NCBI GenBank assembly: GCA_018672055.1
Contig: JABHGM010000001.1
Location: forward strand, 890,093-946,732
Reading direction: 5' to 3'
DNA from: a bacterium
GTDB taxonomy: Bacteria > Patescibacteriota > Patescibacteriia > UBA1558 > UBA10009
DNA: 56,640 nucleotides
A model generated the notes under the pieces. It did no database searches. It saw only the letters and a list, made by a program, of their open reading frames with translations, and was not told the DNA's origin. Position numbers and translations under genes: made by a program. How positions within the stretch are numbered: position 1 is the first letter of the stretch; each line of letters opens with the position of its first letter. Shown in pieces: positions 12,455-56,640 of this stretch.

Positions 12455-13363
12455 TTAATGTTCTTCAGAGCTAGCAATAGTAAAATATACTAAAGTTAGC
12501 ATAGCAAATATCAAAGCCTGAATTATTCCAACTATTACTTCTAAAAACATAAAAGGAATAGGTAGAATAAATGCAAAAATGGTAGCCATGGCTCCAAGCA
12601 ATACTTCCCCTGCAAAAATATTACCGAATAACCTAAATGATAGTGAGGCTACTTTAGCAATTTCTCCAATTATTTCAATAATACCAACAAAAGCTTTAAT
12701 TGGGTTAACTATTATAATAGAGGGGTCTTTCTTAAACTTTTTAGGAATTTCTAAAAATGCTTTAATATTTACAAACTTATTAAAATACTTCCAACCTCCT
12801 ACCATTATTATACCAAATATATTAGTAGCAATTACAGTAAATAGAGCTAAAGCTAAAGTAGTATTTAAATCAGCAGTACCACCTCTAAAAAAAGGTACAA
12901 ATGTTTCATGTCCATTGTGAAGTTCTATAAAACCAATTGAACCAATACCTGGTACTAAGCCTAACCAATTATTAATAAGGATAAACATGAATATAGAAAA
13001 AACAATAGGAAATACTTTCTTAGTTTTATCACGAGATCCTGTAACTGAATCAGCTAAATTATATGCACCTTCTAAAATAACTTCAAAATAATTCTGAATA
13101 CCTTGTGGTATACGTTTTATCTTTTTACTAATTACAGTAGCTAAAACAACAATAATCAAAACTGCTATCCATGAATTAAGAAGCGCATTAGTAACAGTAA
13201 AATTTCCTAAATTAAAAACCGGCTCTGCAAATAAAGTCGGCTCATGTGAGATTTGTTCAGTTGTTTCATGTTGTTCTATTTCATTATGTGACTCAACATT
13301 TACTAAAACCTCCTGATTAATATCAGTTATTTCATTATCGTATTGTTCTACTGTTTGACTCAT
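12455..13363 (-). CDS. atpB: Fo ATP synthase subunit a
   Basis: 302 aa and polytopic. It carries the essential-arginine motif LSFRLFGNIFAGEVLL. Confidence 0.9.
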   Translation of the reverse strand: MSQTVEQYDNEITDINQEVLVNVESHNEIEQHETTEQISHEPTLFAEPVFNLGNFTVTNALLNSWIAVLIIVVLATVISKKIKRIPQGIQNYFEVILEGAYNLADSVTGSRDKTKKVFPIVFSIFMFILINNWLGLVPGIGSIGFIELHNGHETFVPFFRGGTADLNTTLALALFTVIATNIFGIIMVGGWKYFNKFVNIKAFLEIPKKFKKDPSIIIVNPIKAFVGIIEIIGEIAKVASLSFRLFGNIFAGEVLLGAMATIFAFILPIPFMFLEVIVGIIQALIFAMLTLVYFTIASSEEH

Positions 13364-24145: not shown

Positions 24146-24592
24146 ATGTTAAAATCCTATAGAATAAATAGTTATCGCCATATTATGAATTATGGTTGGG
24201 ATATCGAAAAATATAGATACATTGTAATATCAATATACAGTTATATCTGTAATCATGAAAAAGTAATAAAACATACTTGTGTTTCCATTACTGTTTCGGA
24301 TGAAAAAGAAGACAAGAGCATAACCGTCAACTTTGACAGAGAAATGCTTATCCAAAATTTTATAGAAAAAAAAGGAGATATGAGTCAACCGGACTACTTT
24401 CCTTCACAATATGCTGATGAAGAATCTGATATGAAATTAGATAATCATCGTAAAGGTCAATTCCAACTGAAAAATAATAATAAAATTGAGATACAAGCTA
24501 TTAATGTGAAACCTGGCACCAATCGTATACTCATAGCAGTTGTTAATTTTAACGAATTCATGGATGCCTTAGATAACTTAAGATCTATTTAA
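24146..24592 (+). CDS. Orphan hypothetical protein; the only plus-strand gene in the 35-kb housekeeping block
   Basis: 148-aa ORF with a strong SD (AAGGAG, 6 nt upstream of the ATG). It has no signal peptide and no family I recognise. Own promoter and terminator. Confidence 0.55.
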   Translation: MLKSYRINSYRHIMNYGWDIEKYRYIVISIYSYICNHEKVIKHTCVSITVSDEKEDKSITVNFDREMLIQNFIEKKGDMSQPDYFPSQYADEESDMKLDNHRKGQFQLKNNNKIEIQAINVKPGTNRILIAVVNFNEFMDALDNLRSI

Positions 24593-25581: not shown

Positions 25582-28194
25582 TTAAAATCTTTTAGCTCTA
25601 TTAACTCTTAATTCTCCTCCTTTATCTAAAATAACTTTGTCTCTTCTATTAATTTTACCTTTCAATAAATAATTAGCTAAAGCATTATCAACTCTTTCTT
25701 GAATAACTCTTCTTAAAGGTCTAGCTCCAAAAACAGGATCAAAACCAGCTTCAGCTATTTCACTTATTGCTTCATCTGTTATTTCTAAATAAATACCTTT
25801 GGACTTTAATCTTTTTACTACTTTATTTAAAAGTAAAACTGTAATTTTTTGAATATCTTCTGGACTTAGAGGTTTAAATACTACTACACCATCAAAACGA
25901 TTTAAAAATTCTGGCTTATAATATTCTTTTAATTCATTATTTATTAAATCTTCTTTTATTTCATCAATATTTTTACCTGCTTGTATATTATCTTGTATAA
26001 ACTGAGTACCAGCATTTGAAGTAGCGATTATAATACAATTAGTAAAATCAACAGTTCTGCCTTTACCATCAGTTAATCTACCATCATCCATTACTTGTAA
26101 AAATATATTTAATATATCAGGATGAGCTTTTTCAATTTCATCAAGTAAAAGTAAAGAAAATGGTTTCTGACGTATACTTTCTGTTAAATAACCACTCTCC
26201 CCGCTTCTCCCAATTAATTTATCTAAATCATTCTTATTCTGATACTCACTCATATCAAGCCTAACCATTTTATCTTCACTACCAAAATATATTTGAGATA
26301 CAGTTTTAGCAAGTTCAGTTTTACCTACACCTGTTGGACCTAAGAATAATAAATTTACTATTGGTTTACTAGTATCCCTGAGTTCAGTTCTAGCTCTTCT
26401 TAAAGCTGAAGAAACAAATTCAACAGCTTCGTTCTGATCAACCATTCTTTGATGTATTTTATCTTCAAGATTTAATAATTTTTCTGATTCTTCCTGACTT
26501 ATCTCAGTTAAAGGAATATCAGTATGGCTTGATATAATTTTAGCAATATCTTCACCAGTTATCATAGCTCTTTTACCTTTTTCTTGTTTAACCATACCAA
26601 CAACCTCTTCTAAAACATGAATTGCTTTATCTGGTAAGTAATGATCAGGAATATATCTACGTGATAAGGCAACTGCTTTAGCAATAGCATTATATGAAAA
26701 ATAGACACTATTTTTACTTTCCAAAGCACCTACTTTAGATTCAATCATTTGAATAGCTTCATTGTCTTCAGGCTCTTTAACTTCAATTCTCTGAAGTATT
26801 TGACCTAAAGTTGAATCTTCTAAATAAGTCTTGAAATCTTGAGGATGTGTTGTGGCTATAGTAATAACACTCTTACGATTTAAAAACTTAGAAAATATTT
26901 CAGCTAAATCAACATTTTCTGTACCTTGCGAGGTTACCCCAACTAAATCATGTATATTTTCTATATGTAATATAATATTACCAGCTCTTACTATTTCTTT
27001 AATAATAATCATTACTTTTTGTTCAAGTTCGTTAGGATGCGTTGCCCCAGCAATTAAATGAGCTACAGATAATGATACTAAACGTTTATCTTGTAAAATC
27101 TTAGGCACTTCTTCAGCAACCATACGATTAGCTAAACCTTCAATTATATTAGTAGCCCCAACCCCAGGTAAACCAACTAAAACTACACTATTTCTACCAC
27201 CTTGAATAATATTGAATATTTCACTATATTCTTTTTCACGAGCTACACATATTGGTAAATAACCAGATTTGGCTAAAGCTGTTAAGTCTTCACTAAAACT
27301 ATCAAGTACAGGTGTTGCCATAGCTGTCATAGCCCTATCCATAGTACCCTTAGGTTTAAAATATGATTTTGACCTATATCTCTTGTATCTAGCACTTAAC
27401 ATTTTTTGCATGTTAGCCCATTTAATAACATTAGATACTGCATCTGGAGTTATTTTTAAATCAAGTAAAATATCTTGAATAACCTCATCATTTGTAATAA
27501 GTGCTTCAAGTAAATCTGTTACTTCTACATTAGTACGTGATTCTTGATAAGCTAGAATATAGGCGTCATGTAATATATTATTTATTTTCTCATCTACTTC
27601 TGTCTTATCTACAGCTAAATTATCTATAATCCTGCCAGATATTGCTTTCAAATCATTTATACCAACACCTAAACGGCTAAATACAATATTAATTGTTTTA
27701 ACTTTAAGTATCCCATCAAATAAATATGAAGAGTTAAATAAATGTTTTCTCTTAAAAGCATTTAAATATGATTTATCTATTATCCTTAGAGCTTCTAAAG
27801 TAAAAGAATCGGCCATATCAATACGTTTTAAATTCTTTTTACTTGTTAACTTCTCAAAACTCTTTTTTAAAACAGAAAATGATTTTTTTGATTCCAATCC
27901 TATGTTATATATTAAATACATTAGGATTATAATAGACCACCAGAATCTAATTAAATATTCTCCTTTATATGATTCTAAACTAAATATTGGCAAACCAGTC
28001 CTAAAAGCTACTACTATCCAATATATAAATGAAATAAAACCAAGTAAAACTAAAACAGAAAAAACAAGCCTAACTATTTTATTAATTACATATTTAAATT
28101 GTCTTAAGCGTATATCTTGATAACTAAAAACTCTACCCCAATACAATTGTTTATTCTCAAGTTCTAAATATTCTTTTTTAATATTATCTTCCAT
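25582..28194 (-). CDS. Membrane-anchored Clp/Hsp100-family AAA+ protein with a degenerate first nucleotide-binding module and an intact second one
   Basis: 870 aa. Two N-terminal TM helices (res ~40-100) are followed by Clp_N-like repeats. NBD1 reads GLPGVGAT (27151-27174, verified on DNA) where Clp proteins have GEPGVGKT, ILHIENIH in place of ILFIDELH, and AGATHPNELE in place of AGAKYRGEFE. NBD2 is canonical: GPTGVGKT and LLLDEIEKAHPDI. Confidence 0.85.
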   Translation of the reverse strand: MEDNIKKEYLELENKQLYWGRVFSYQDIRLRQFKYVINKIVRLVFSVLVLLGFISFIYWIVVAFRTGLPIFSLESYKGEYLIRFWWSIIILMYLIYNIGLESKKSFSVLKKSFEKLTSKKNLKRIDMADSFTLEALRIIDKSYLNAFKRKHLFNSSYLFDGILKVKTINIVFSRLGVGINDLKAISGRIIDNLAVDKTEVDEKINNILHDAYILAYQESRTNVEVTDLLEALITNDEVIQDILLDLKITPDAVSNVIKWANMQKMLSARYKRYRSKSYFKPKGTMDRAMTAMATPVLDSFSEDLTALAKSGYLPICVAREKEYSEIFNIIQGGRNSVVLVGLPGVGATNIIEGLANRMVAEEVPKILQDKRLVSLSVAHLIAGATHPNELEQKVMIIIKEIVRAGNIILHIENIHDLVGVTSQGTENVDLAEIFSKFLNRKSVITIATTHPQDFKTYLEDSTLGQILQRIEVKEPEDNEAIQMIESKVGALESKNSVYFSYNAIAKAVALSRRYIPDHYLPDKAIHVLEEVVGMVKQEKGKRAMITGEDIAKIISSHTDIPLTEISQEESEKLLNLEDKIHQRMVDQNEAVEFVSSALRRARTELRDTSKPIVNLLFLGPTGVGKTELAKTVSQIYFGSEDKMVRLDMSEYQNKNDLDKLIGRSGESGYLTESIRQKPFSLLLLDEIEKAHPDILNIFLQVMDDGRLTDGKGRTVDFTNCIIIATSNAGTQFIQDNIQAGKNIDEIKEDLINNELKEYYKPEFLNRFDGVVVFKPLSPEDIQKITVLLLNKVVKRLKSKGIYLEITDEAISEIAEAGFDPVFGARPLRRVIQERVDNALANYLLKGKINRRDKVILDKGGELRVNRAKRF

Positions 28195-41378: not shown

Positions 41379-41522
41379 ATAACGTTAATAAAGAACTTTG
41401 AAAATTGAATAAGTAAACAAATAACACATAAAAACAAGGAGAAAGTTATGTGTACCAAGAAAAACAGATATCAATATTTTGTAAGTAATGAAAAAGTAAA
41501 TAAAACCCGAAAAGGAGAAATC

Positions 41523-44500
41523 ATGAAGAACTTAGTTGTTTCTATCATAACAGTAATTATAATTACTGTTTCACTCAGCATCACTTTTGCTAACGAAATG
41601 AATGTATTGCCAACATTCAAAGAACATCGTCATATGTTAAACTCAGATATGGATTCAGTAAGAACAATCATTCACCAGGAAATACATCCATCTGGTTTAA
41701 TTGCTGAATTAGCTATAATATCACTTCGTGATGGTGATGACTATCAAGACTTTGTAGAAACAAGTCTTTATTCACCATTCACAGATAGCTATACTGGACT
41801 CTATCTTGATCAGAGTTATCCAGATGCACCAGAATATGACTATAATGCTCTTGATATTGTACATTACAATAACTGTGAAGAAGCTGATATCTACTGGTGG
41901 GGAGATAATATCTATCATAGTAGCGGATCACAGATTGATGCTGATTATCCCTTGGTAAGTGCCTGGAGAGAAGGCGTTGTCGAAGGAGTAACTTACTACT
42001 TAAAGACGGAAATAAATCTAGATTTTGATTTTCAAGATGAATTTGAGGTTCAATGGCGATTTACACAAACCTATGATGGTGACGTAGTCTACATAATTCC
42101 AGATTCTAGTAATAATCATGATTATGATCAACAAGGCTGGCCGATTTGGGTCGAAACTTGGGATCTCCGACCAAACATCTATCCGCATAATGTTGTTATA
42201 GAAACTAACGGGGACCCTATCAGTGGTGACAACCCTGCTTATGTAGGTCAGAATCTTCGAATCAACGTTGAAATAACTGAGAATGAAGGTTTTTGGGCTG
42301 GAAACGACATAGAAATACGATACTATGTTGATGGAAATTACGATAACAACGACGATGAAACAGAAGAAATAGATGCCTGGGAGACTGATGATGAAAGAAG
42401 TGATAATTTCACTGTTTCAACGGAAGGTACACACTGCATTAGTATTACTATTGACTATTATGATGATGTTAATGAAACAAATGAAAATGATAGCGAAACA
42501 GAACATTGTTTCCAAGTCAACGAAGCTCCAATTCCCCCAACAGTTACAATAGATGACCCAGAATACTATGGTTATAATGACCTAGTATTCGGATGGACTG
42601 TCTATGACGAAAATGGTGGAACTCCACAAAGTCGAGATAGACTCGATAGTGATAGCTGGTCTAACTGGGGTTATCATACTTCAAGAAACTTAATGAATAT
42701 TTCATCTACATCTCACACATTCTATGTTGAAGTTAAAGATCAGACTAATTTGACAGGTTCTGATAATTATTCATTTACAATAGATGCTTCTGTCGATATA
42801 CAGTCAATTCCTAATCAATCAGTGATATATGGAGAAACTCTTGAATTAGATATATCTGCTTCAGGAGGTTCTGGATCGTACGTATATGGTGCAGGCCCTG
42901 GGGTTATAAATTCAAATGGCCATTATTCATGGACACCAGAAATATATAACCCAAACCCAACACCAGTATCAGTGTCAGCAACTTGTACAGATCATGATGA
43001 TAACTCTGATATTGAGAATTTCAATGTTACTATGATCTTGTCTCCAGTTGAAATATCTGGTCTGGAAACAAGCTATACTATCGAAGAAGGAAGTCAATTC
43101 AGTGATTCCGAAATCATAGCAAGTGGTGGTGATCTAGTAAACTACTCATGGAACAATGTACCAACTTTAAACAATGGCTTTTGGGTAACTCTTGGTAGTT
43201 TAGATGGATCTTCAACTTCATTACAAGGACAAGCTCCTTATGTTAATGAAGATACTGATTTTGGTTATGACCTAGCATGTAATTCACAAAGTGAATTGGA
43301 AACTCAAAGCTATATCATCACTGTTACTAATATTGAGATACTAGTTGAACCTGAGATTGAAACTCTTTGGAGTATCATGAATCAAGAAATTGATGAATTC
43401 ACTGTTACAGCTACTGGTCTTGAAGATGGTCAATGTGTTTGGAGTTTACAATACCAGCCTTCCTCAAATAATGGTAACCCATATGCTTATGGATTATCTA
43501 TAAATGCAGAAGACAATAACTGTACAGCTACAATATCTGGCGCTCCAACAGCACTTGTTGACTTACCAATTTACGTCGGTAAGTATGATGCCTGGCAAAT
43601 ACAAGGTGTGACTAATGTTATGATAAATGCTTTTCCTCCTGTTATCTACTACCCACAACCTCCATACACGTTCTTCCAGTATCAAGATGCCCAAATTCAG
43701 CTAAATGCAAGTGGTGGAGATAACATTGAATACACGTGGATAGTTGAAGATGATTGCTTAATGAACCTAGAATCTGCAGAAGGACATGAAGCAATATTCA
43801 GTGTTAACACTGAAACAGTTGGCTCTTTCACATGTAACGTAACTTGTCAGCAAGCTAACTTCCTAGATAATGATCATTCTGAGCAAATTAATATTAATAT
43901 TGAAGGCTCATTCTGGTCTGTTGATACGCTAGAACTCATATTCCCACCTATTCAAGATACTCAAACAGTTACTTTAACTAATACTACAATTAATGGTTCG
44001 CCATTCAACTATACGTTAAGTCTAAGTAGCCCAGCATATTACGAGATCCTTTCTCTATTATCTGGCAGTTTAAGTTCTGGAGAACAAGCTGTAATTGAGA
44101 TAATGAGCTATGATAACAATAATCCATATGAACTATCGGCACAACTCCTAATCAATATCAATGGCGGAGCCTTCACTTCAATTGTTGAACTAACTACTCT
44201 TCAGGAATGCAATCTTGCTCTTGGTGATGTAAATGGAGATGAAACGCTGGATGTTCTGGATATTGTAGCTATCGTTGCTTATGTTCTAGGTACTGCTGAA
44301 ACTGAATTTGATGAGTGTCAAATAGAAGCTGGTGATTACAATAATGATGGCGATATTGATGTTCTGGATATAATTGCTCTGCTCGTTCCAATTATTGGAG
44401 AGACAGCAAGATCAGGTACAGCAACTGAAGCTAAAATTGTTAAATACAATGATGGTATTATCCTAGAAGCTAATGGATATGTTAATGGTATTCAAATGGT

Positions 44501-44969
44501 ACTATCGCACAGTGATGGATTCAATATTCAATTGAGTAATGCTTTCATAGCTGATTATGTAACAGAAGGTACCTTAACTAAAGTTATCATAATAAATCCT
44601 GAAGGAACTCGATTATTCAGTACATCTGAAAAATTCGAGGTTGTCAGCATTCTTGCTGCAACTACTTCCGGATATATTGATGCAGAAGTTGTAGGACCAA
44701 CTGAATTCATATTAAATGCAGCATACCCTAACCCATTCAATCCAACGACTACTGTAAGTTATAATCTACCTGAGATGAGCCAAGTTAAATTAACTGTCTA
44801 TACTCTTAATGGAAAAAAAGTTATGACTATGGTAAATGGAATCGAAAATGCTGGTTACCACGAGGTAACCCTGAACTTTAATGAGTTCAGCACTGCAAGT
44901 GGTGTTTATTTTATGAAGCTAGAAATACCAAGTAATCACTTGGTACAAAAGCTCTTATATATTAAATAA
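41523..44969 (+). CDS. Secreted multidomain surface protein (paralog 1): signal peptide, novel N-domain, CARDB-like, FN3-like, several He_PIG/Ig-like modules, dockerin pair, ~95-aa beta module, T9SS-type C-terminal sorting domain
   Basis: I prefer the start at ATG 41523 (AAAGGAG SD; MKNLVVSIITVIIITVSLSITFA signal), which aligns with the paralog 2 N-terminus. An in-frame ATG at 41448 also has an SD. CARDB-like end ..ITIDYYDDVNETNENDSE. Ig-like ISASGGSGSYVY, ASGGDLVNYSW and ASGGDNIEYTW. Dockerin and CTD are listed separately. Confidence 0.85.
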   Translation: MKNLVVSIITVIIITVSLSITFANEMNVLPTFKEHRHMLNSDMDSVRTIIHQEIHPSGLIAELAIISLRDGDDYQDFVETSLYSPFTDSYTGLYLDQSYPDAPEYDYNALDIVHYNNCEEADIYWWGDNIYHSSGSQIDADYPLVSAWREGVVEGVTYYLKTEINLDFDFQDEFEVQWRFTQTYDGDVVYIIPDSSNNHDYDQQGWPIWVETWDLRPNIYPHNVVIETNGDPISGDNPAYVGQNLRINVEITENEGFWAGNDIEIRYYVDGNYDNNDDETEEIDAWETDDERSDNFTVSTEGTHCISITIDYYDDVNETNENDSETEHCFQVNEAPIPPTVTIDDPEYYGYNDLVFGWTVYDENGGTPQSRDRLDSDSWSNWGYHTSRNLMNISSTSHTFYVEVKDQTNLTGSDNYSFTIDASVDIQSIPNQSVIYGETLELDISASGGSGSYVYGAGPGVINSNGHYSWTPEIYNPNPTPVSVSATCTDHDDNSDIENFNVTMILSPVEISGLETSYTIEEGSQFSDSEIIASGGDLVNYSWNNVPTLNNGFWVTLGSLDGSSTSLQGQAPYVNEDTDFGYDLACNSQSELETQSYIITVTNIEILVEPEIETLWSIMNQEIDEFTVTATGLEDGQCVWSLQYQPSSNNGNPYAYGLSINAEDNNCTATISGAPTALVDLPIYVGKYDAWQIQGVTNVMINAFPPVIYYPQPPYTFFQYQDAQIQLNASGGDNIEYTWIVEDDCLMNLESAEGHEAIFSVNTETVGSFTCNVTCQQANFLDNDHSEQININIEGSFWSVDTLELIFPPIQDTQTVTLTNTTINGSPFNYTLSLSSPAYYEILSLLSGSLSSGEQAVIEIMSYDNNNPYELSAQLLININGGAFTSIVELTTLQECNLALGDVNGDETLDVLDIVAIVAYVLGTAETEFDECQIEAGDYNNDGDIDVLDIIALLVPIIGETARSGTATEAKIVKYNDGIILEANGYVNGIQMVLSHSDGFNIQLSNAFIADYVTEGTLTKVIIINPEGTRLFSTSEKFEVVSILAATTSGYIDAEVVGPTEFILNAAYPNPFNPTTTVSYNLPEMSQVKLTVYTLNGKKVMTMVNGIENAGYHEVTLNFNEFSTASGVYFMKLEIPSNHLVQKLLYIK
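44208..44396 (+). other. Type I dockerin-like duplicated EF-hand calcium-binding segment (paralog 1)
   Basis: CNLALGDVNGDETLDVLDIVAIVAYVLG...EAGDYNNDGDIDVLDIIALL: two D.N.DG..D..D repeats, each followed by a hydrophobic helix. Confidence 0.75.
44709..44966 (+). other. T9SS (Por) type A C-terminal sorting domain
   Basis: ILNAAYPNPFNPTTTVSYNLPEMSQVKLTVYTLNGKKVMTMVNGIENAGYHEVTLNFNEFSTASGVYFMKLEIPSNHLVQKLLYIK matches the YPNPFNP.T.I.Y.LP....V.L.iY...G..V..L.....AG.H.v.......ASGVYF..L........K.l.lK pattern at the extreme C-terminus. Confidence 0.8.
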
Positions 44970-44984
44970 TAAATAAAATAACCG

Positions 44985-45018
44985 AAGGCGTTGATTTTTT
45001 AAATCAACGCCTTTTTTA
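44985..45018 (+). terminator. Rho-independent terminator of paralog 1
   Basis: aaggcgttgattt-ttt-aaatcaacgcctt followed by tttt. Confidence 0.8.
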
Positions 45019-45036
45019 ATAGAATCAAAGCATAAC

Positions 45037-45065
45037 TTTACAAATTAGAAAATATTTGTTATTAT
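45037..45065 (+). promoter_or_regulatory. Candidate promoter of dockerin paralog 2
   Basis: TTTACA (45037-45042), 17 nt, TATTAT (45060-45065). The ~100-nt upstream region is homologous to that of paralog 1, including GAACTTTAAAAATTAATA versus GAACTTTGAAAATTGAATA. Confidence 0.45.
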
Positions 45066-45132
45066 GATATATTAAAAATCGAACTTTAAAAATTAATACA
45101 CTTCACAAAAAACACAAAAAAAGGAATATGCC

Positions 45133-47151
45133 ATGAATAGAATATTCTGCAACCTATTAATAGTTACAATATTTGTTTCTATTACGATCAACCAAGAGAA
45201 AGTATTATCTAATACTAACCTCTTCCCTACAATCAAAGAACACCGTGCTTTTCTTAAAGCAACAGGCAAAGAAAGCATAACTACTATCATCCAAACAACT
45301 GAGTGGGCAGAAGCTGAAGCAACTATTACAGCTAGCTTAACTACAAACCGTGATAATTGGGCAAATACATTTCGTACTACAATGGAACTAACTGGAGGTG
45401 AATGCCCTGAATGTGAAATATACATGAATCAAGGCCACCCAGGAAATCCTGAAGAATATGAAAATGATGCCCTTTATATTAGTGAGACAAACATGAATGA
45501 TTGCGTCATATATGAACGAGGCGAAGAAATCGATCATCGTTTTAATAGTGAAATAAATGCTACATACCCACTGATGGAAGGCTATGAACTTGGAGTTACT
45601 GGTGGTGATTCATACTACATAGAATCAGGTATTATGATCCAAGAAGATTACCAAGATGTATATTGGGTTGAATGGAGATGCGCTTTAATCTTACCTGATG
45701 GTAGTAGCTATATTTCACCTAACGATGACGAAGTAAATGATGATAGTTATGACCAACAAGGATGGCCAGTTGAACAAGGCTATTGGGACCTACGTCCTGA
45801 TTTATGTCCAACGAACGTTCAAATCAAAAGAATCAGCGATGATAGTATTATTGATGTTGATAATCCAGCATATGTTGATGAGCAACTTTATGCTAGTTAC
45901 TGTGTAACTGAGAACGAAGGCTTCTGGGTTGGTGATGTTTATAGTTATTACTATTTAGATGACTTAAATTTCGATAGTGGCACGATATATAATTTATCTG
46001 CCAACAATATCGATTGTGAAAATAGTAATAACTTCACTGTTTCATACACGGGTCAACATTCGCTTAGTATTGATAGTGATCCTAATTATGAAATCAATGA
46101 AACGAATGAAGACAATAATGGAATGACTAGTTACTTCAGTGTTATAGAAGCTCCAATGGCACCAACAGTTACTATCGATGATCCTATACACATAGACTGG
46201 AACACTGTTCTAATCAACTGGACCGGAAATGATATCAACAATGATATACTAGAATTTCGATGGAAAATCGTCAACGGTGGATTTTGGACATTATGGGGAG
46301 ATGATACATCAAGAATCTTACATAATTTATCGCCTGGTAACCATTACTTCTACGTAGAAGCAAGAGATCCAACTAATCTGATAGGTACTGATAATATTAT
46401 CTACACCATTGATTCTCCAATAACCATTACTGCCATACCCGATCAAAGTATTATTTATGAATTAAGTTTAGAATTCGATATCTTTGCTTCAGGTGGTTCG
46501 GGGCTATACAATTACAGTGCCGTCTACGGAAATATTGATTCAAACGGTCATTATAGCTGGATACCTTATAATCCTGTTTCATATAATGAGTTGATTACAG
46601 TCACCTGTTCTGAATTTGAGTCTAATTCAAATTCAGAAGATTTGTTGATTACAGTAATATCGCCTTCGTCTATTGAACCATTGGAGTTATTATTTCCATC
46701 TATTGAAACTACTCTGGAAGTAACCATCACAAACACGACTGTAAACGGTTCATCATTCAACTACGCACTAAGCTTAAGTAACGAGACTTACTATGACATT
46801 CTGTCTGAATTGTCCGGCAACCTAAGCTCTGGAGAACAAGCAATTGTAGAAGTTATGAGTTATGTTAACAATAACCCATATGAACTCTCTGCCTTACTTC
46901 AGATCAGTATAAATAGCGGAATCTTTAATTCCGTTGTAGAGCTTACAACTCAAACAGATTGCAATTTAGCTTCTGGTGATGTTAATGGAGATGAAATCGT
47001 TGATATTCTAGACATTATTACTACTGTATCATTTGTGTTAGAAAATCTTGAACTAGATCCATGTCAGTATGAAGTAGCAGAAATTAATGGTGATGGTCAA
47101 ATTGATATTCTAGACATTATCATGATAATTGATATTGTTATAGAAAATTAA
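45133..47151 (+). CDS. Secreted surface protein (paralog 2): same N-domain, CARDB-like, FN3-like and Ig-like modules, ending directly after the dockerin pair with no sorting domain
   Basis: 672 aa. N-terminal hydrophobic signal MNRIFCNLLIVTIFVSITI. FPTIKEHRAFL aligns with LPTFKEHRHML. DQQGWP..WDLRP, NPAYV, TENEGFW and INETNEDNNG are shared. The C-terminal block is about 70% identical by eye to paralog 1 (LELLFPSIETTLEVTITNTTVNGSSFNYALSLS..SGEQAIVEVMSYVNNNPYELSA..). Confidence 0.85.
   Translation: MNRIFCNLLIVTIFVSITINQEKVLSNTNLFPTIKEHRAFLKATGKESITTIIQTTEWAEAEATITASLTTNRDNWANTFRTTMELTGGECPECEIYMNQGHPGNPEEYENDALYISETNMNDCVIYERGEEIDHRFNSEINATYPLMEGYELGVTGGDSYYIESGIMIQEDYQDVYWVEWRCALILPDGSSYISPNDDEVNDDSYDQQGWPVEQGYWDLRPDLCPTNVQIKRISDDSIIDVDNPAYVDEQLYASYCVTENEGFWVGDVYSYYYLDDLNFDSGTIYNLSANNIDCENSNNFTVSYTGQHSLSIDSDPNYEINETNEDNNGMTSYFSVIEAPMAPTVTIDDPIHIDWNTVLINWTGNDINNDILEFRWKIVNGGFWTLWGDDTSRILHNLSPGNHYFYVEARDPTNLIGTDNIIYTIDSPITITAIPDQSIIYELSLEFDIFASGGSGLYNYSAVYGNIDSNGHYSWIPYNPVSYNELITVTCSEFESNSNSEDLLITVISPSSIEPLELLFPSIETTLEVTITNTTVNGSSFNYALSLSNETYYDILSELSGNLSSGEQAIVEVMSYVNNNPYELSALLQISINSGIFNSVVELTTQTDCNLASGDVNGDEIVDILDIITTVSFVLENLELDPCQYEVAEINGDGQIDILDIIMIIDIVIEN
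46960..47148 (+). other. Type I dockerin-like duplicated segment at the extreme C-terminus of paralog 2
   Basis: CNLASGDVNGDEIVDILDIITTVSFVLENLELDPCQYEVAEINGDGQIDILDIIMIIDIVIEN followed by the stop. Confidence 0.75.
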
Positions 47152-47217
47152 AGATCCAATTAGGCTAGCCAGGATATAAGAAAGTAAAAAAAGTAATGTA
47201 TATCAAATAATGATATT

Positions 47218-47248
47218 AGGCGCTGACACCTTATTCAGCGCCTTTTTT
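47218..47248 (+). terminator. Rho-independent terminator of paralog 2, same sequence family as 44985-45018
   Basis: aggcgctga-caccttat-tcagcgcct followed by ttttt. Both terminators read AGGCG(Y)TGA...TCA(R)CGCCTTTTTTAATA. Confidence 0.8.
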
Positions 47249-47254
47249 AATACA

Positions 47255-47753: not shown

Positions 47754-47842
47754 TTTTGTTTTTATTTTTCGCTTTTTTTAGCCAAATTCTATTTGAATGT
47801 AAACTTATCCACATTCCCCTGTCTCTATATATATGATAACAC

Positions 47843-47887
47843 ATAAACCATAAAGTGTAAAGTACTACTTCCTACTTCATGGTTTAT
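47843..47887. promoter_or_regulatory. Inverted repeat ATAAACCAT-N27-ATGGTTTAT in the merR upstream region
   Basis: The arms lie at 47843-47851 and 47879-47887. On the minus strand one arm sits inside a TTTACA-17-TATCAT promoter-like spacer. Possible operator or hairpin. Confidence 0.25.
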
Positions 47888-47900
47888 ATTTAAGATAACT

Positions 47901-47928
47901 AAAAACTCCGGAGTTATCCGGAGTTTTT
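47901..47928. terminator. Bidirectional terminator after the 173-aa membrane protein gene
   Basis: aaaaactccgga-gtta-tccggagttttt, a perfect 12-bp stem that includes the A and T runs. Confidence 0.75.
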
Positions 47929-47946
47929 ATCTTAAACTTTTATTTC

Positions 47947-52259: not shown

Positions 52260-55200
52260 TTATTCATTATCATACACATATTCTATTGTTACTGTTACAT
52301 TTGTTATAGCTTCTGATGAAGCTTGTACCTCTAGATACATACCGTTATCTGAGGTTAAATAATATTCTAGCTCTTCTACTACATTTGAGTAGCCAGAGCA
52401 AGTATAGCCATTAATCTGCTTTATTACATTACCATTCTTGTCTTTCAAGGCCATTTGTAATAAACCCTCTGTACATTGATACTGAACCTTAATAGCCTTA
52501 ATAGTTACATTCTCAGATGGTGACCATGATTGCGTACCACTACCCCAAACTCTATCACCTATACTTGGGCTATCTAAATAAACAGATAAAGTATTTCTTC
52601 TAACATTTTCTTTAAAATTATATATTACACCGTCTAAATTTAAATTAATTGTATCACCAGGTTTACCAATATTTAATTGACCACCACCAGATGACAAAGA
52701 AACAGGTATAGTAGATGTAGCAGAAGTAATTACTAAATCACCCACTACTGTTAAGGCAGTACCACCGTTACTATTTACAACTCTTAAAGTAGATGATGAA
52801 GTAGCAGAGGTTATAGTAAAGCTATCACCTGTTGTATTTTGTGGATTAACAGATACTGTACCAGAAGCATTAATACCGAATAGATCTAAGCCTGCATTTT
52901 GAATGTTGAATAAGCTACCACCTACTTGATTTCTAAAGTAATCATTTTGTTTAAAAGTACCAGTACCTTCATATGAAAGATATGTATCATGAGCTGAAGA
53001 AATAACAGTGTTTAGAGCAACTGAGAAACTCTTACCACTACCAGTTAATATATTATATGAAGAAGTAATGTTATTTAATGTATTATTTACATCAAATACT
53101 GTATCTTCATTACACTCTTCACCTGTTTCAACATCTATACATACTGTCCTAATATCATTTACAACTGAAGCTATACTAGAATACATTATATCTATAGTAG
53201 AAGTAGCACTGTTATCGCTTAAATATTCATGAGTAACACCATAAGCTACATCATTAATATTAATATCTTTCAGAATAATACTAGAATCACCTGTTACTTT
53301 TACACCATCTCCAAATATACCATTACTACCAGACCATTTAACTTCTACATCTTCTAAAGTTAAATTAGTAGTAGAAGCAGATACTACAGCTTGACCAAGT
53401 ACATCACCCGACATGGATAAAGTAATATCTTTAACTTTAACATCCCCTATTTCAGTGCTAGTAGCATTATTTAGAACTTCAGTAGAACTAATAATAACTG
53501 GCTTATTTAAACTCATAATAGTAGTTAAACCTTGACCTGCACCAATAATATCAACATATGGCTTTAAACTAACTTGTTCATTATATATTCCAGGCTTAAC
53601 TAATAAGGTCCATCTATTACCCAAAGTATTGCTAGTAATTGATTCTAAAGCTTCATTTATGGTCCTATACTGTCCACCTTCTTTAGCTACAACAATCTCA
53701 TTAGTTCTTTCATTAATTATGTCAGTAATACCTGATAGATTAGTTTGGACTTGAGCTATTAAAACAACGGAAGTTGATGTAGAAATATTTGATGTGGAAG
53801 TAGCTACAGTAATATCACCATACTCAGTCATAAATATATAGTTAGTAGAAGAAGCAAACATACCAATATTATTAATAGCAGCAGTGTTTACTTTAACTCC
53901 AGAGATAAAGCCTGAACCAGAACCAATATTTACGGTTAAAGTAGAAGAAGCTGCATTGTTACTTACTAACCAACCATAATCAATATATTCATGAGGTATC
54001 TTATGTCTATTTGTAACATCTAAGAAAATACCAAAGTTAGTTACTTGATCATAATAATCACCACTAGATTCAATATAGGCTAAAGATGAAACATAATAAT
54101 CACCAAGCATACCATCTATTTGATTATTAAATGATTTAATTATACCGTTCTGAGCTACTATAGCTGTACCAGAAACTTCAGTTAAATCATTATTCATGAT
54201 AACTAAAGTAGTTGAAGCTAATTGAGATATAGCTTGATAGAAATTATATGAGAATATTGAATTAGTTAAACTTACTTTAGAAGCACTACCTATTACACTT
54301 AAACCAATAGCTGGATAATCTGTATCAGCATCAAGATTTAAATTAGTAAGTATAGGACGTGTAGTAGTTCCCAGACCATTAATACCTATTAAAACAGGAT
54401 CAGTAGAAGTAGAAGTTGATTTAATAGTCATAGCTTCTAGTCTTGAATTAGTATCAATATTTACAACAGGTGAATTATCTGATGAAATAATAGTCTGACC
54501 TTGTCCTTGACCTACTACATCAACATATTGCTTTAAAGTAATACTTTCTTCATAGAAACCGCTACCTACTTCAATAATATATCTATTTTGAGCTGTATTA
54601 TCATTAATTGATTCTAAAGCTTGAGTAATAGTCTTAAAGTCACCGCCTTGTGAAGCAACTTTAATCTTTTGAGCTATTGGTTCAAAATATGTACCAAGCT
54701 CAACTAATATAGATATAGTACCTTCACCTTCTTCTAGACTAGCTAAAGCCATGCCAATAACTCCAGCTCCAGGTTTAGTAGCCAGCATTGCATAACCAGG
54801 AGTATGAGCTGAAGTTAACATATCACCTCTATTAATCGAACCATTCTCTGTAGTAACCTTAACTTGAGTTCTGCCAGAAGTAACGATTGGTAGACTACTA
54901 GTAGCCATATCCTGAGCATTAAATCTTAAAGTAGAACTTGTAGCTACTACACCTAAAATATTAGTTGCATTAGCATATTCAGAAATAATAGCTTCAGAAG
55001 TAGTACTAGTAGAAACAGTTACTAATGTACCAGATTCAATAGTAGAGGTAGATGTATTTTGAACTGTAAAGTAATGAGCAATACCATTTCCACCAAATTC
55101 CATTACTCCAGCAATACGTAGATTACCCTGAACATAGAGATCACCAGCTACACCTAGATCATCCATAACTAAAAGATCCGAACCATCTAAGACAAATTCA

Positions 55201-56640
55201 GGAAATTCTACCAAAGCTACTTCCAAAGTATCATTATCACCTATTATTACATTACTACCAAAGTAAGCAGGACCAGAAGAAGCAGTTAAGTAGAAACCGT
55301 AATCTGAAATATTGATATCTTGTAAATTATCATTATCTGATTTAATAACTAATTTATCTGAATATATATTATCTGAGTATAAATTAGCTAAGCTATTATC
55401 AGAACTACCAATATCATATATTCCATCAGCTTCAAATTCTAAATTAGAAGCAATTCTTGAATTAAATACTACTAAGCTTGTACTCTCTGAATCTTCACCA
55501 AATACTATATTATTTTCAAATGTTTGAGTATCACCTTGTAACATAGCAACATGTGTAGGTAAAGCTGAAGTTGCAATCTTACCTGGAGTTGAAATAACAG
55601 CTAATTTTAAATCACTAATCTCGGCACCTTCCATTATTTGACCATCACCTATCATAACTAAAGCATTATCAATGTAATTAGTCTTGTAATCAGGATTTAC
55701 ATACATTGAAACCTGACCTGATACTTCTTCAAATGTTTCTAAAGCAGTACCAATTACTATACCTTCTGTACCAGTTTGTAATTTCATAGCAAAACCTGGT
55801 ATAGGAGCTGGAGTTAAAGTATCACCAGGATAAATATTACCATTTACATTAGATATCTTAACAGGAACCCTGCCTAACATAGCAACAGGATAACCATTAT
55901 CAACGTCATTACCCATTAAAAGACCAGGCTCACCCGAAACAATACCAAGTATATTATTATCACTCTCACCAGTAGTTTTAACAATATATCCAGAATTATT
56001 TGGATCAGCCATTACTAAGTCACCCACCTCAAGTTCTTCTAAGGAAGGATATTTTTCAGCAATATCAGCACCAGTTGAAATAAAGTCAGTAGCTATTACT
56101 GAACCACTAAATGTAGCATCTCCAGATTCGTTAACAACTAAGGTTGGCGTAGTAGTTGGTGCATTTACTACATCTAATACAGTAATAACATCTTGTACAC
56201 CACGCAGTGCTACACCAGCAACATCTATACCAGATATTTGATTTTCAGAAGCACCTAAACCAAAAGTATCAAAGAAATAGTCAGCAAAAGGATACAGATG
56301 TCTAGTATAATCATTATTAGTTAAAGCAATTTCATCTTTGTATTGCCATTCATAAATAGCCATATCTTGAATACCAGATAAGACATTTACATCTTCCCAT
56401 CTATCTTTTAATACGGAACGTGAAGCACTATTTATATATGCGCCAAAACCACGAACTGCTCCACTAGCTACTTCTAATGGATGTGTAGAAGGACTAGTAG
56501 TACCAATACCAACTTTACCATCACCGGCTACTACTAACCTAGCCGTAGTATTATTCTCAACAGTTAAGATTAAATCATCATCAGCTATACTACCAGATAA
56601 CTCATTTTTAGCTTGCAAAACTATATGTCCTCTACCAGCG
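52260..56640 (-). CDS. Tail-fibre/tailspike-like giant protein (N-terminus beyond the window): S74-like chaperone segment, two IMC-like modules, two right-handed parallel beta-helix modules, C-terminal beta-sandwich
   Basis: The reading frame is open to position 56640; the track start at 56618 is only an internal TTG. Fibre-type GKVGIGTTSPSTHPLEV, then SASRSVLKDRWEDV..IYEWQYKDE. Two homologous ~125-aa modules (55695-56072 and 54699-55079). Two pectin-lyase-fold starts: GGDFKTITQALESINDNTAQNRYIIEVGSGFYEESITLKQYVDVVGQGQGQTII (about 54009-54665) and GGQYRTINEALESITSNTLGNRWTLLVKPGIYNEQVSLKPYVDIIGAGQGLTTI (about 52974-53699). Confidence 0.85.
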   Translation of the reverse strand, partial: AGRGHIVLQAKNELSGSIADDDLILTVENNTTARLVVAGDGKVGIGTTSPSTHPLEVASGAVRGFGAYINSASRSVLKDRWEDVNVLSGIQDMAIYEWQYKDEIALTNNDYTRHLYPFADYFFDTFGLGASENQISGIDVAGVALRGVQDVITVLDVVNAPTTTPTLVVNESGDATFSGSVIATDFISTGADIAEKYPSLEELEVGDLVMADPNNSGYIVKTTGESDNNILGIVSGEPGLLMGNDVDNGYPVAMLGRVPVKISNVNGNIYPGDTLTPAPIPGFAMKLQTGTEGIVIGTALETFEEVSGQVSMYVNPDYKTNYIDNALVMIGDGQIMEGAEISDLKLAVISTPGKIATSALPTHVAMLQGDTQTFENNIVFGEDSESTSLVVFNSRIASNLEFEADGIYDIGSSDNSLANLYSDNIYSDKLVIKSDNDNLQDINISDYGFYLTASSGPAYFGSNVIIGDNDTLEVALVEFPEFVLDGSDLLVMDDLGVAGDLYVQGNLRIAGVMEFGGNGIAHYFTVQNTSTSTIESGTLVTVSTSTTSEAIISEYANATNILGVVATSSTLRFNAQDMATSSLPIVTSGRTQVKVTTENGSINRGDMLTSAHTPGYAMLATKPGAGVIGMALASLEEGEGTISILVELGTYFEPIAQKIKVASQGGDFKTITQALESINDNTAQNRYIIEVGSGFYEESITLKQYVDVVGQGQGQTIISSDNSPVVNIDTNSRLEAMTIKSTSTSTDPVLIGINGLGTTTRPILTNLNLDADTDYPAIGLSVIGSASKVSLTNSIFSYNFYQAISQLASTTLVIMNNDLTEVSGTAIVAQNGIIKSFNNQIDGMLGDYYVSSLAYIESSGDYYDQVTNFGIFLDVTNRHKIPHEYIDYGWLVSNNAASSTLTVNIGSGSGFISGVKVNTAAINNIGMFASSTNYIFMTEYGDITVATSTSNISTSTSVVLIAQVQTNLSGITDIINERTNEIVVAKEGGQYRTINEALESITSNTLGNRWTLLVKPGIYNEQVSLKPYVDIIGAGQGLTTIMSLNKPVIISSTEVLNNATSTEIGDVKVKDITLSMSGDVLGQAVVSASTTNLTLEDVEVKWSGSNGIFGDGVKVTGDSSIILKDININDVAYGVTHEYLSDNSATSTIDIMYSSIASVVNDIRTVCIDVETGEECNEDTVFDVNNTLNNITSSYNILTGSGKSFSVALNTVISSAHDTYLSYEGTGTFKQNDYFRNQVGGSLFNIQNAGLDLFGINASGTVSVNPQNTTGDSFTITSATSSSTLRVVNSNGGTALTVVGDLVITSATSTIPVSLSSGGGQLNIGKPGDTINLNLDGVIYNFKENVRRNTLSVYLDSPSIGDRVWGSGTQSWSPSENVTIKAIKVQYQCTEGLLQMALKDKNGNVIKQINGYTCSGYSNVVEELEYYLTSDNGMYLEVQASSEAITNVTVTIEYVYDNE

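Follow-up and report, generated by a model that had tools for sequence, protein, structure and literature searches.

The C-terminal domain (CTD) that directs proteins to a type IX secretion system (T9SS) is found at the end of a large secreted protein encoded by a bacterium of the Patescibacteria, or candidate phyla radiation (CPR). The DNA in question, called the window from here on, is a stretch of 56,640 nucleotides of contig JABHGM010000001.1 (GenBank assembly GCA_018672055.1, positions 890,093 to 946,732 of the forward strand). The protein, of 1173 amino acids (aa), is referred to as paralog 1; the gene of its shorter relative, paralog 2, lies downstream of it, and that of an RHS toxin lies upstream. 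In its last 86 residues, paralog 1 carries a genuine member of the type A family of T9SS sorting domains. In genomes, such sorting domains are taken as a sign of type IX secretion and hence of the diderm bacteria of the Fibrobacteres–Chlorobi–Bacteroidetes (FCB) group. What is unusual is that a canonical CTD is stably resident in a clade of Patescibacteria, is coupled to an RHS toxin, and has been kept through divergence, duplication and cassette replacement. It is considered probable, on the whole, that paralog 1 is a CPR surface protein of FCB derivation, exported by the Sec pathway, whose CTD is kept by selection as an extracellular end-module. No description of a T9SS CTD in CPR, Patescibacteria or DPANN was found in the open-access literature searched.

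Identity and fold of the sorting domain

The translation of positions 44709-44969 matches exactly the 86 aa, followed by a stop codon, that the first-pass annotation of the window had picked out as a type A T9SS CTD. These are residues 1088-1173, at the extreme C-terminus of the open reading frame (ORF). The recognition proved correct when the hidden Markov model (HMM) TIGR04183 (Por_Secre_tail), which has a curated cutoff of 23 bits, was run on the protein. Paralog 1 as a whole scored 37.1 bits (E 2.3e-9), and the isolated 86-aa domain scored 43.6 bits (E 2.2e-11). Similarly, the Pfam family PF18962 was matched at 34.7 bits, above its gathering score of 27. The HMM envelope spans residues 1093-1169 (window 44724-44954). 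A public copy of the protein, MBT6067637.1, already bears the name 'T9SS type A sorting domain-containing protein [bacterium]'.

AlphaFold2, given 99 aligned CTDs as input, modelled the domain as seven beta strands at a pLDDT of 90.2. When the model was compared with the PDB through Foldseek, substrate CTDs from translocon structures of Flavobacterium johnsoniae were among the best matches, namely the RemZ CTD (8gl8_D, rank 3, TM-score 0.63 normalised to the target) and the RemA CTD (8gl6_D, TM-score 0.70, rmsd 3.0). The mirolase CTD (8qb1) was also matched. This likeness of the modelled fold is consistent with a T9SS CTD but not diagnostic of one, as many unrelated immunoglobulin (Ig)-like domains score alike. 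Paralog 1 thus combines a score above the cutoff, a C-terminal position together with a signal peptide, a seven-strand Ig-like beta-sandwich and a Lys near the C-terminus, which are the features by which membership of the type A family was judged.

In the DNA searched, the domain is solitary. At E ≤ 10, a custom CTD HMM detected no second copy in the six frames of the window or in eight Patescibacteria loci (L001-L008). One CTD was counted in the 56.6 kb of the window, and related CPR-like loci, ~300 kb in all, have one apiece. T9SS organisms carry, on average, twenty or more TIGR04183 proteins per genome.

Architecture of paralog 1

From its N-terminus, paralog 1 consists of a signal peptide, a domain with a DQQGWP motif, a CARDB domain, an Fn3/Y_Y_Y-like domain, He_PIG-like Ig domains, a dockerin, a segment of ~110 aa without assignment and the CTD. 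Residue M26, the probable start of the protein, is invariant in the family alignment, and every homologue has a comparable hydrophobic N-terminus. No significant Pfam match was obtained for the N-terminal domain, for aa 361-921 (561 aa), for the segment between the dockerin and the CTD, or for the C-terminal domain of the RHS toxin. The AlphaFold2 model of the full-length protein, with a pLDDT of 47.5, was too poor for use.

The RHS gene ends 108 bp upstream of paralog 1. A terminator scan revealed no terminator-like site in this gap, and a hairpin with a T-run lies just past the stop codon of paralog 1. The two genes are therefore probably co-transcribed, and on this evidence from the sequence they probably form one transcription unit.

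Genomic context and soundness of the assembly

The window carries pheS, a gene for an AddA-like helicase-nuclease, an F-type ATP synthase operon, rmuC, tatD, metG, a glyS-type gene, clpB, tgt, recO and ileS. Its surface-type ORFs encode a triple-LamG protein, a DUF11 protein and a 1452-aa product without a Pfam match. IleS is 51-79% identical to records of Patescibacteria/Parcubacteria; its best match, on a contig handled here as L001, is labelled Gammaproteobacteria but has CPR-type synteny. The GC content of the window is ~0.30, and the contigs on which its proteins were found again in identical form are as long as 947-963 kb. Judged by the affinities of IleS and of the RHS toxin, the GC of 0.30 and the contigs of ~0.95 Mb, the genome is one of the Patescibacteria, so that the CPR-like setting noticed in the first-pass annotation stands.

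The contig L001 (CAZSGB010000026.1, 8.76 kb) was deposited as part of an 'uncultured Gammaproteobacteria' metagenome-assembled genome (MAG). It is syntenic with the window at 75-84% protein identity (orf173, IleS, RecO), and its other relatives belong to the Patescibacteria. An error of binning or labelling is probable.

The other 33 gene-like ORFs of at least 100 aa in the window, with an antisense ORF at 12579-12920 left out, were scanned against Pfam, and no outer-membrane or T9SS family was found among them. Together with the six-frame search described above, this upholds the earlier statement that the window holds neither another CTD nor an outer-membrane gene. Likewise, nothing outer-membrane-like was seen in the 10 kb past the left end of the window, which carry pheT, gyrB, corA and secE. 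Scans of the window for tRNA and Rfam families gave no matches. It has been proposed that Patescibacteria lack an outer membrane (PMC12102498).

The locus is well represented in public data. Paralog 2 is indexed in 123 sample blocks, 51 of them with contigs of 0.2-1 Mb, and pheS in 146. Gene order was read in the 23 blocks with the longest contigs. The order RHS toxin, paralog 1, paralog 2, MerR, orf173 and LamG is identical in the NCBI MAG contig and in many ENA/Logan/JGI assemblies. A chimeric assembly, a concern raised at first pass, or a contamination was ruled out, since the locus was assembled over again in more than 100 sample blocks and in many independent long assemblies, some with contigs of 0.2-1 Mb.

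Relatives of the protein and its probable origin

Among 5.8 billion proteins, only four clusters of full-length homologues of paralog 1 were found (P0002-P0005), and these are 33-47% identical to it. Over the protein body, the pairwise identity among family members is 35-66%. All four homologues end in a complete CTD, with TIGR04183 scores of 42.6-50.2 bits, while four FCB comparators scored 45-55.8 bits. The segment just before the CTD has been reshuffled within the family, a dockerin in one case and a different domain of 200 aa in another, but in every member the CTD comes last. RHS orthologues, 46-53% identical to that of the window, directly precede P0002, P0003 and P0004; with the window itself, the pairing is seen in four of the five family members, P0005 being the one that is not adjacent to an RHS gene. 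Metagenome contigs scanned with the family alignment returned only an unrelated CTD protein (on L015, read as high-GC with many long overlapping ORFs) and an Fn3-like match (on L016).

The profile built from the five family CTDs matches 7872 proteins. Among the best 120 of these, all 13 that carry a name come from FCB phyla, mostly Cloacimonadota, along with KSB1, Zixibacteria, Marinimicrobia and Bacteroidota. This fits the view, taken in the first-pass annotation, that the domain is essentially confined to the FCB group.

More distant relatives were sought exhaustively with a profile of the N-terminal 510 residues, so that the query was devoid of the CTD. Five proteins sharing the N-terminal module were recovered (P0288, P0303, P0329, P0374 and P0398), all of them with a signal peptide and a terminal Por_Secre_tail. 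By BLASTP against paralog 1, P0288 is 31% identical over 354 aa (E 8e-27), P0398 25% over 442 aa (E 8e-19) and P0303 25% over 460 aa (E 1e-9). P0303 is WP_321369874.1 of an uncultured Draconibacterium sp. (Bacteroidota) and is encoded on a 4.6-Mb contig. Thus, the architecture of signal peptide, N-terminal module, Ig repeats and CTD exists in a Bacteroidota organism. These sequences are read most parsimoniously as the product of a transfer in which the CPR clade received an entire T9SS cargo gene, and not as a CPR protein to which a CTD had been added. As the CTD is overwhelmingly an FCB domain by its distribution, the transfer is taken to have run from FCB to CPR. Among the non-CPR donors of genes to Patescibacteria, Paceibacteria included, Bacteroidota are reported to be one of the more frequent (PMC12455944).

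The ClpB of the window (25582-28194, minus strand; 870 aa) has no Clp_N match and is ~33% identical to the Clp_N-containing ClpB encoded beside the CTD genes in L011 (L011:1-2240) and L020 (L020:14280-16784). As the ClpB differs, L011 and L020 belong to a lineage other than that of the window genome.

Conservation of the domain and its invariant lysine

Position -6 from the C-terminus is occupied by Lys (K1168 of paralog 1) in all five family CTDs, and this residue is at least 90% conserved in the 99 CTDs. It is also present in the distant relatives P0288, P0329, P0374 and P0398. According to Lauber et al., the conserved motifs of type A CTDs specify the fold and not the contacts with the translocon (PMC10994853). 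The conservation of YPNPFNP and SGxYF, therefore, shows only selection on the fold. A possible exception is a Lys close to the C-terminus, near-invariant and important for function, that makes contact with PorV (PMC10994853). Its invariance in the five family CTDs and in four distant relatives read as CPR-like is suggestive but not decisive.

The CTD of the window is among the more diverged ones, being 46% identical to the consensus of the FCB CTD set. The CTDs of P0003 and P0004 reach 65% and 64%, respectively, and the median for the FCB members themselves is 64%. In a comparison of nearest-neighbour identities, the CTDs of the family did not turn out to be closest to one another; the comparison set is consensus-like and was picked by similarity to their own profile, so that a single capture and repeated captures of the CTD fit the result alike.

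Turnover of CTD cassettes at one site

One of the distant relatives, P0288, is encoded on a 212-kb contig with a GC of 0.33 and recurs on another of 443 kb. Next to it are genes for a VirB4-like ATPase, a TraC-like protein and PrgI, with ClpB, ComF, PPDK, a sigma factor and a DUF5667 protein nearby. The type IV secretion system with VirB4-like, TraC-like and PrgI components has been described as typical of Patescibacteria (PMC12102498). The locus of P0288 (L020) and that of P0002 with its RHS gene (L012) turned out to be the same site, between a DNA methyltransferase gene and clpB, in near-identical genomes, with flanks of 96-98% identity. On one side, L012:1-78 is 96% identical to L020:9810-9887; on the other, L012:10003-10514 is 87.7% identical to L020:13914-14424. 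Because these flanks match, two cargo cassettes must be recognised at one site, one of 9.9 kb with the RHS gene and P0002, and the other of 3.9 kb with P0288, a beta-helix/NosD protein.

The second block of similarity starts exactly at the first CTD codons in both genes. Its identity is ~78% across the CTD, and ~97% over the stretch that runs from about the last ten codons into clpB. Read from these alignments, such alternation is how strain-variable genes of the cell surface or of host interaction behave. The retention of the CTD on both alternative cassettes is further evidence, at the sequence level, that the domain is not decaying. The idea that CTD-coding DNA itself serves as a recombination anchor found no support, as the CTDs of L012 and L020 are only ~78% identical against ~97% in the flanks; by the same figures, the exchange probably took place in the flanks.

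The accessory insert and the RHS toxin

The RHS gene, paralog 1 and paralog 2 together make up a 12.16-kb insert. In L001, the closest relative, which lacks the insert, the two flanks are contiguous, and the intergenic DNA aligns with that of the window up to ~47253 and again from ~35090. Identity between the two is 79% for IleS and 84% for orf173. The gene order in L001 is LamG, orf173, an AbiEii toxin-antitoxin pair, MerR, a 45-aa ORF and ileS, the last two being ~140 bp apart. In the window, the insert sits at precisely that spot, its junctions resolved to the base, and brings three plus-strand genes into a mostly minus-strand region. None of the eight loci L001-L008 has an RHS gene next to ileS.

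The base composition also sets the insert apart in part. The GC content at third codon positions (GC3) is 0.09-0.19 in the annotated native genes and 0.127 in the RHS gene; it is 0.239 in paralog 1 and 0.269 in paralog 2, and the overall GC of both paralogs is likewise above that of their neighbours. No integrase or transposase gene was found in or beside the insert. A target-site duplication was considered, and only a 6-bp GTATTA occurs at both junctions (35091-35100 and 47244-47253); in such AT-rich DNA, it is not convincing and may be due to chance. Hence, the horizontal origin proposed at first pass can now be put more sharply: the insert is missing in the nearest relative, the GC3 of the paralogs is atypical, and the combination of N-terminal module and CTD occurs in a Draconibacterium protein.

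The AbiEii pair of L001 (L001:1782-3054, against window 47754-47946) comprises a 190-aa ORF and an AbiEii nucleotidyltransferase toxin, a type IV toxin-antitoxin pair, between orf173 and MerR, and it is missing from the window. With this pair in one close relative and the RHS insert in the other, the orf173-MerR-ileS neighbourhood has received two independent accessory insertions.

The named homologues of the RHS toxin are mostly from Patescibacteria (Paceibacterota, Adlerbacteria, Magasanikbacteria, Falkowbacteria and others), and the gene is, therefore, of CPR type and not an import from the FCB group. Of the hallmarks of polymorphic toxins, the RHS toxin has the repeats, the TcdB_midN region and the YD shell; its orthologues share a conserved C-terminal domain, and the 108-bp gap before paralog 1 contains no small immunity ORF. 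The C-terminal ~260 aa (window 40560-41340), which follow the core ending in NPVKYIDPDGQ, hold two or three hydrophobic helices and an HExxH motif. This region is not polymorphic, as over ~400 aa it is 46% identical to the orthologue on L018 (L018:2-1237, where the motif reads HEAIH).

Paralog 2 is 44% identical to paralog 1 in the family alignment. For paralog 2, the custom HMM found no remnant of a CTD in any frame, and the gene has its own terminator at 47218-47243. Both paralogs have dockerin type I-like modules (44220-44375 and 46975-47130), and PF00404 also occurs in some RHS homologues of Patescibacteria type (P0205 and P0245); no cohesin was detected in the window. The coordinates of the main features are collected in Table 1.

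Table 1. Features of the insert and of paralog 1, in window coordinates.
Feature	Position	Strand	Basis and remarks
Accessory insert, 12.16 kb (RHS toxin, paralog 1, paralog 2)	35091..47252		Between the ileS promoter region and the 47-aa ORF/MerR gene
RHS/YD-shell toxin, 2046 aa	35200..41340	+	Pfam FG-GAP, TcdB_toxin_midN, RHS repeats; N-terminal signal-like helix; C-terminal transmembrane (TM) helices and HExxH (HEFQH)
Paralog 1, 1173-aa secreted multidomain CTD protein	41448..44969	+	Probable true start ATG 41523 (M26), AAGGAG just upstream
Sec-type signal peptide, MKNLVVSIITVIIITVSLSITFA followed by NE	41523..41591	+	Judged by inspection of the sequence
N-terminal family module (aa 96-445): novel ~150-aa DQQGWP-motif domain, CARDB (aa 260-351), Fn3/Y_Y_Y-like	41733..42782	+	Pfam CARDB, BLASTP, profile search
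Dockerin type I-like Ca-binding module (aa 925-976)	44220..44375	+	PF00404 29.1 bits against gathering score 22.9; 32.7 bits on the excised segment
Type A T9SS-family CTD (aa 1088-1173)	44709..44966	+	YPNPFNP, SGVYF, K-LLYIK motifs; TIGR04183, PF18962, AlphaFold2, Foldseek
Codon of Lys1168 (position -6 from the C-terminus)	44949..44951	+	Matches the near-invariant, functionally important Lys of type A CTDs
Hairpin and T-run just past the paralog 1 stop	44985..45013	+	Likely intrinsic terminator of the RHS-paralog 1 unit
Paralog 2, 672 aa, same N-terminal module, C-terminal dockerin (aa 615-666), without CTD	45133..47151	+	Pfam, alignment

Other observations in the window

Away from the insert, a 148-aa ORF without a Pfam match (24146-24592, plus strand) has a GC3 of 0.248, as atypical as that of paralogs 1 and 2, and is the sole gene-like plus-strand ORF in the left 35 kb. 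By this composition, it may be another acquired gene. The 113-aa plus-strand ORF at 12579-12920 is antisense within an atpB-type gene. The giant ORF at 52260-56618 (minus strand) is 1452 aa long in the window and 1574 aa as called in L010, and has no Pfam match. A 947-kb ENA contig ends inside or beside it, which suggests a repeat or an assembly-breaking region.

Possible explanations for a sorting domain in this host

The explanation held to be probable is as follows. Paralog 1 would be an Ig- and CARDB-rich surface or secreted protein of a Parcubacteria-type CPR bacterium. Most likely, a complete T9SS-cargo gene entered the CPR clade from an FCB-group bacterium; the gene family would then have diversified and duplicated, and in most of its members become coupled to a CPR-type RHS toxin gene. 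The signal peptide and Sec alone would take paralog 1 outside the cell, for, with Patescibacteria held to lack an outer membrane, a signal peptide should suffice for export. The CTD would not act as an outer-membrane translocation signal in the CPR host. Instead, it would persist by selection as a compact C-terminal beta-sandwich that helps in folding, in stability, or in attachment to a surface or to a partner. Paralog 1, which is adhesin-like, and the RHS toxin would together serve cell-cell contact or antagonism.

Four points weigh against this explanation. First, the CTD keeps a Lys that is dispensable for the fold but important in T9SS transport (PMC10994853), which is hard to explain if the domain is purely structural. 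Second, the body that the two paralogs share can do without the domain, since paralog 2 has no CTD. Third, T9SS and outer-membrane genes have been excluded for about 66 kb only, of a genome of roughly 0.95 Mb. Fourth, the taxonomy of the homologue contigs L011, L012, L014, L018, L020, L022 and L023 was deduced from gene content, low GC and synteny.

A different explanation, which we consider unlikely, is that the CTD mimics the cargo of a host. A CPR epibiont or parasite of an FCB bacterium would display an authentic CTD, and the surface attachment complex of the host (PorV/PorU/PorZ/PorQ) would bind the protein or attach it covalently, thereby fixing the symbiont and its RHS toxin to the host. 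The CTD cassettes would then be host-range determinants swapped between strains, a corollary that is equally unlikely. The CTDs of the family are as model-like as those of FCB bacteria, those of P0003 and P0004 come as near to the FCB consensus as FCB members do, and the kept Lys is tied to T9SS transport rather than to folding. The pairing with a toxin and the strain-variable cassettes also fit a host-interaction protein, and Bacteroidota co-occur and exchange genes with Patescibacteria (PMC12455944). Nevertheless, recognition of the CTD has been described at the periplasmic face of the SprA-PorV translocon, not from outside the cell, and motif conservation is largely explained by the requirements of the fold (PMC10994853). 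Moreover, the window CTD itself is among the more diverged.

It is similarly unlikely that the CTD is an inert relic of a transferred cargo gene, useless in the CPR cell and not yet decayed. The insert looks recent, being missing in L001 and atypical in GC3; paralog 2 does without the domain, and small beta-sandwiches are robust. Against this, the homologues are only 33-47% identical to the window protein, and still every CTD is complete, with no truncation or frameshift. The regions just upstream were reshuffled while the CTD stayed terminal, and it was kept in both of the alternative cassettes. An inert domain was one of the options of the first-pass annotation, and it has lost ground, as the CTD is found at full HMM score, with its Lys at -6, in the four full-length homologues and in four low-GC distant relatives.

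The same conservation would also be expected if the CPR clade had a CTD-handling pathway of its own, in which, in the manner of PorU or of sortases, a peptidase or transpeptidase would remove the CTD and join the protein to the wall or the S-layer. More than one type of CTD protein (P0002 and P0288) exists in what is apparently one population, and a link to the conserved HExxH domain of the adjacent RHS protein can be imagined, although as pure speculation. No candidate machinery is present in the window or in any locus inspected, however, and P0005, P0288, P0329 and P0398 adjoin no shared accessory gene. With one CTD per locus, and one in 56 kb, the pool of substrates would be very small for a dedicated pathway. 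Such a pathway is, hence, regarded as doubtful, a shade more so than mimicry or decay.

A diderm organism with a T9SS elsewhere in its genome, for which the CTD would be an ordinary secretion signal, is very improbable. The CTD is canonical and only about 66 kb of the genome was inspected; yet the affinities of IleS and of the RHS toxin lie with Patescibacteria, the contigs of ~0.95 Mb fit a CPR-sized genome, and no outer-membrane or T9SS family occurs in the inspected DNA. Patescibacteria are also proposed to be without an outer membrane (PMC12102498), and published abstracts state that the T9SS is restricted to Bacteroidota or the FCB group. Finally, an assembly chimera or a contaminating FCB fragment, which the raised GC and GC3 of paralogs 1 and 2 might suggest, is of negligible probability in view of the identical gene order in the NCBI MAG contig and many ENA/Logan/JGI assemblies, the clean junctions on both sides against L001, and the CPR-type RHS gene with its native GC3 next door.

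Significance

If the absence of a T9SS holds genome-wide, the CTD has a use that is independent of the T9SS, or one that is directed at another cell. In that case, a CTD would count as no evidence of a T9SS in metagenome bins. It would instead point to gene flow between CPR and FCB bacteria, and perhaps to their physical association. The pairing with an RHS toxin also offers a concrete two-gene module for contact between symbiont and host.

Comparison with known systems

Among the closest counterparts are the type A CTDs of RemA, RemZ and NucA in F. johnsoniae (PDB 8GL6, 8GL8 and 8GLK). The CTD of paralog 1 resembles these in its HMM scores above the cutoffs, its extreme C-terminal position behind a Sec signal peptide, the seven-strand beta-sandwich, the YPNPFNP and SG(V/I)YF motifs and the Lys at -6. 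It differs from them in its host, which belongs to the Patescibacteria (proposed to have no outer membrane), in that no T9SS component was seen in ~66 kb, and in there being one CTD per locus. Secretion by a T9SS, cleavage of the CTD and attachment to A-LPS are, for the organism of the window, implausible.

In sequence, the closest subtype is that of the NPFNP-type CTDs of Cloacimonadota, KSB1, Zixibacteria and Marinimicrobia, which are also matched by FlgD_ig (PF13860). These are 35-51% identical to the window CTD and up to 72% identical to the CTD of P0003, and no donor above 72% identity was found. Upstream of the CTD, the proteins that bear them are unrelated to paralog 1. In its whole architecture, paralog 1 resembles the Draconibacterium protein WP_321369874.1, annotated as Ig-like domain-containing, which shares with paralog 1 the signal peptide, the DQQGW module, the Fn3/Y_Y_Y-like repeats and the terminal Por_Secre_tail. 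It differs in its modest identity (25% over 460 aa), its length of 2098 aa, its many Big_7 repeats and its Bacteroidota-style CTD without NPFNP.

The neighbouring gene product has its counterparts in the RHS/YD-shell (TcB-TcC-like) toxins of Patescibacteria, with which it shares FG-GAP, TcdB_toxin_midN, RHS repeats and the TEN_YD-shell. Unlike in those toxins, the C-terminal domain is conserved among the orthologues examined, and the gene downstream encodes a secreted CTD protein of 1173 aa instead of a small immunity protein.

Monoderm bacteria use C-terminal sorting modules on their surface proteins, such as LPXTG/sortase signals and SLH domains. By analogy, paralog 1 may be compared with these as a Sec-exported multi-Ig protein that ends in a C-terminal module in a cell proposed to have no outer membrane. 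It differs in having no LPXTG motif, TM tail or SLH domain.

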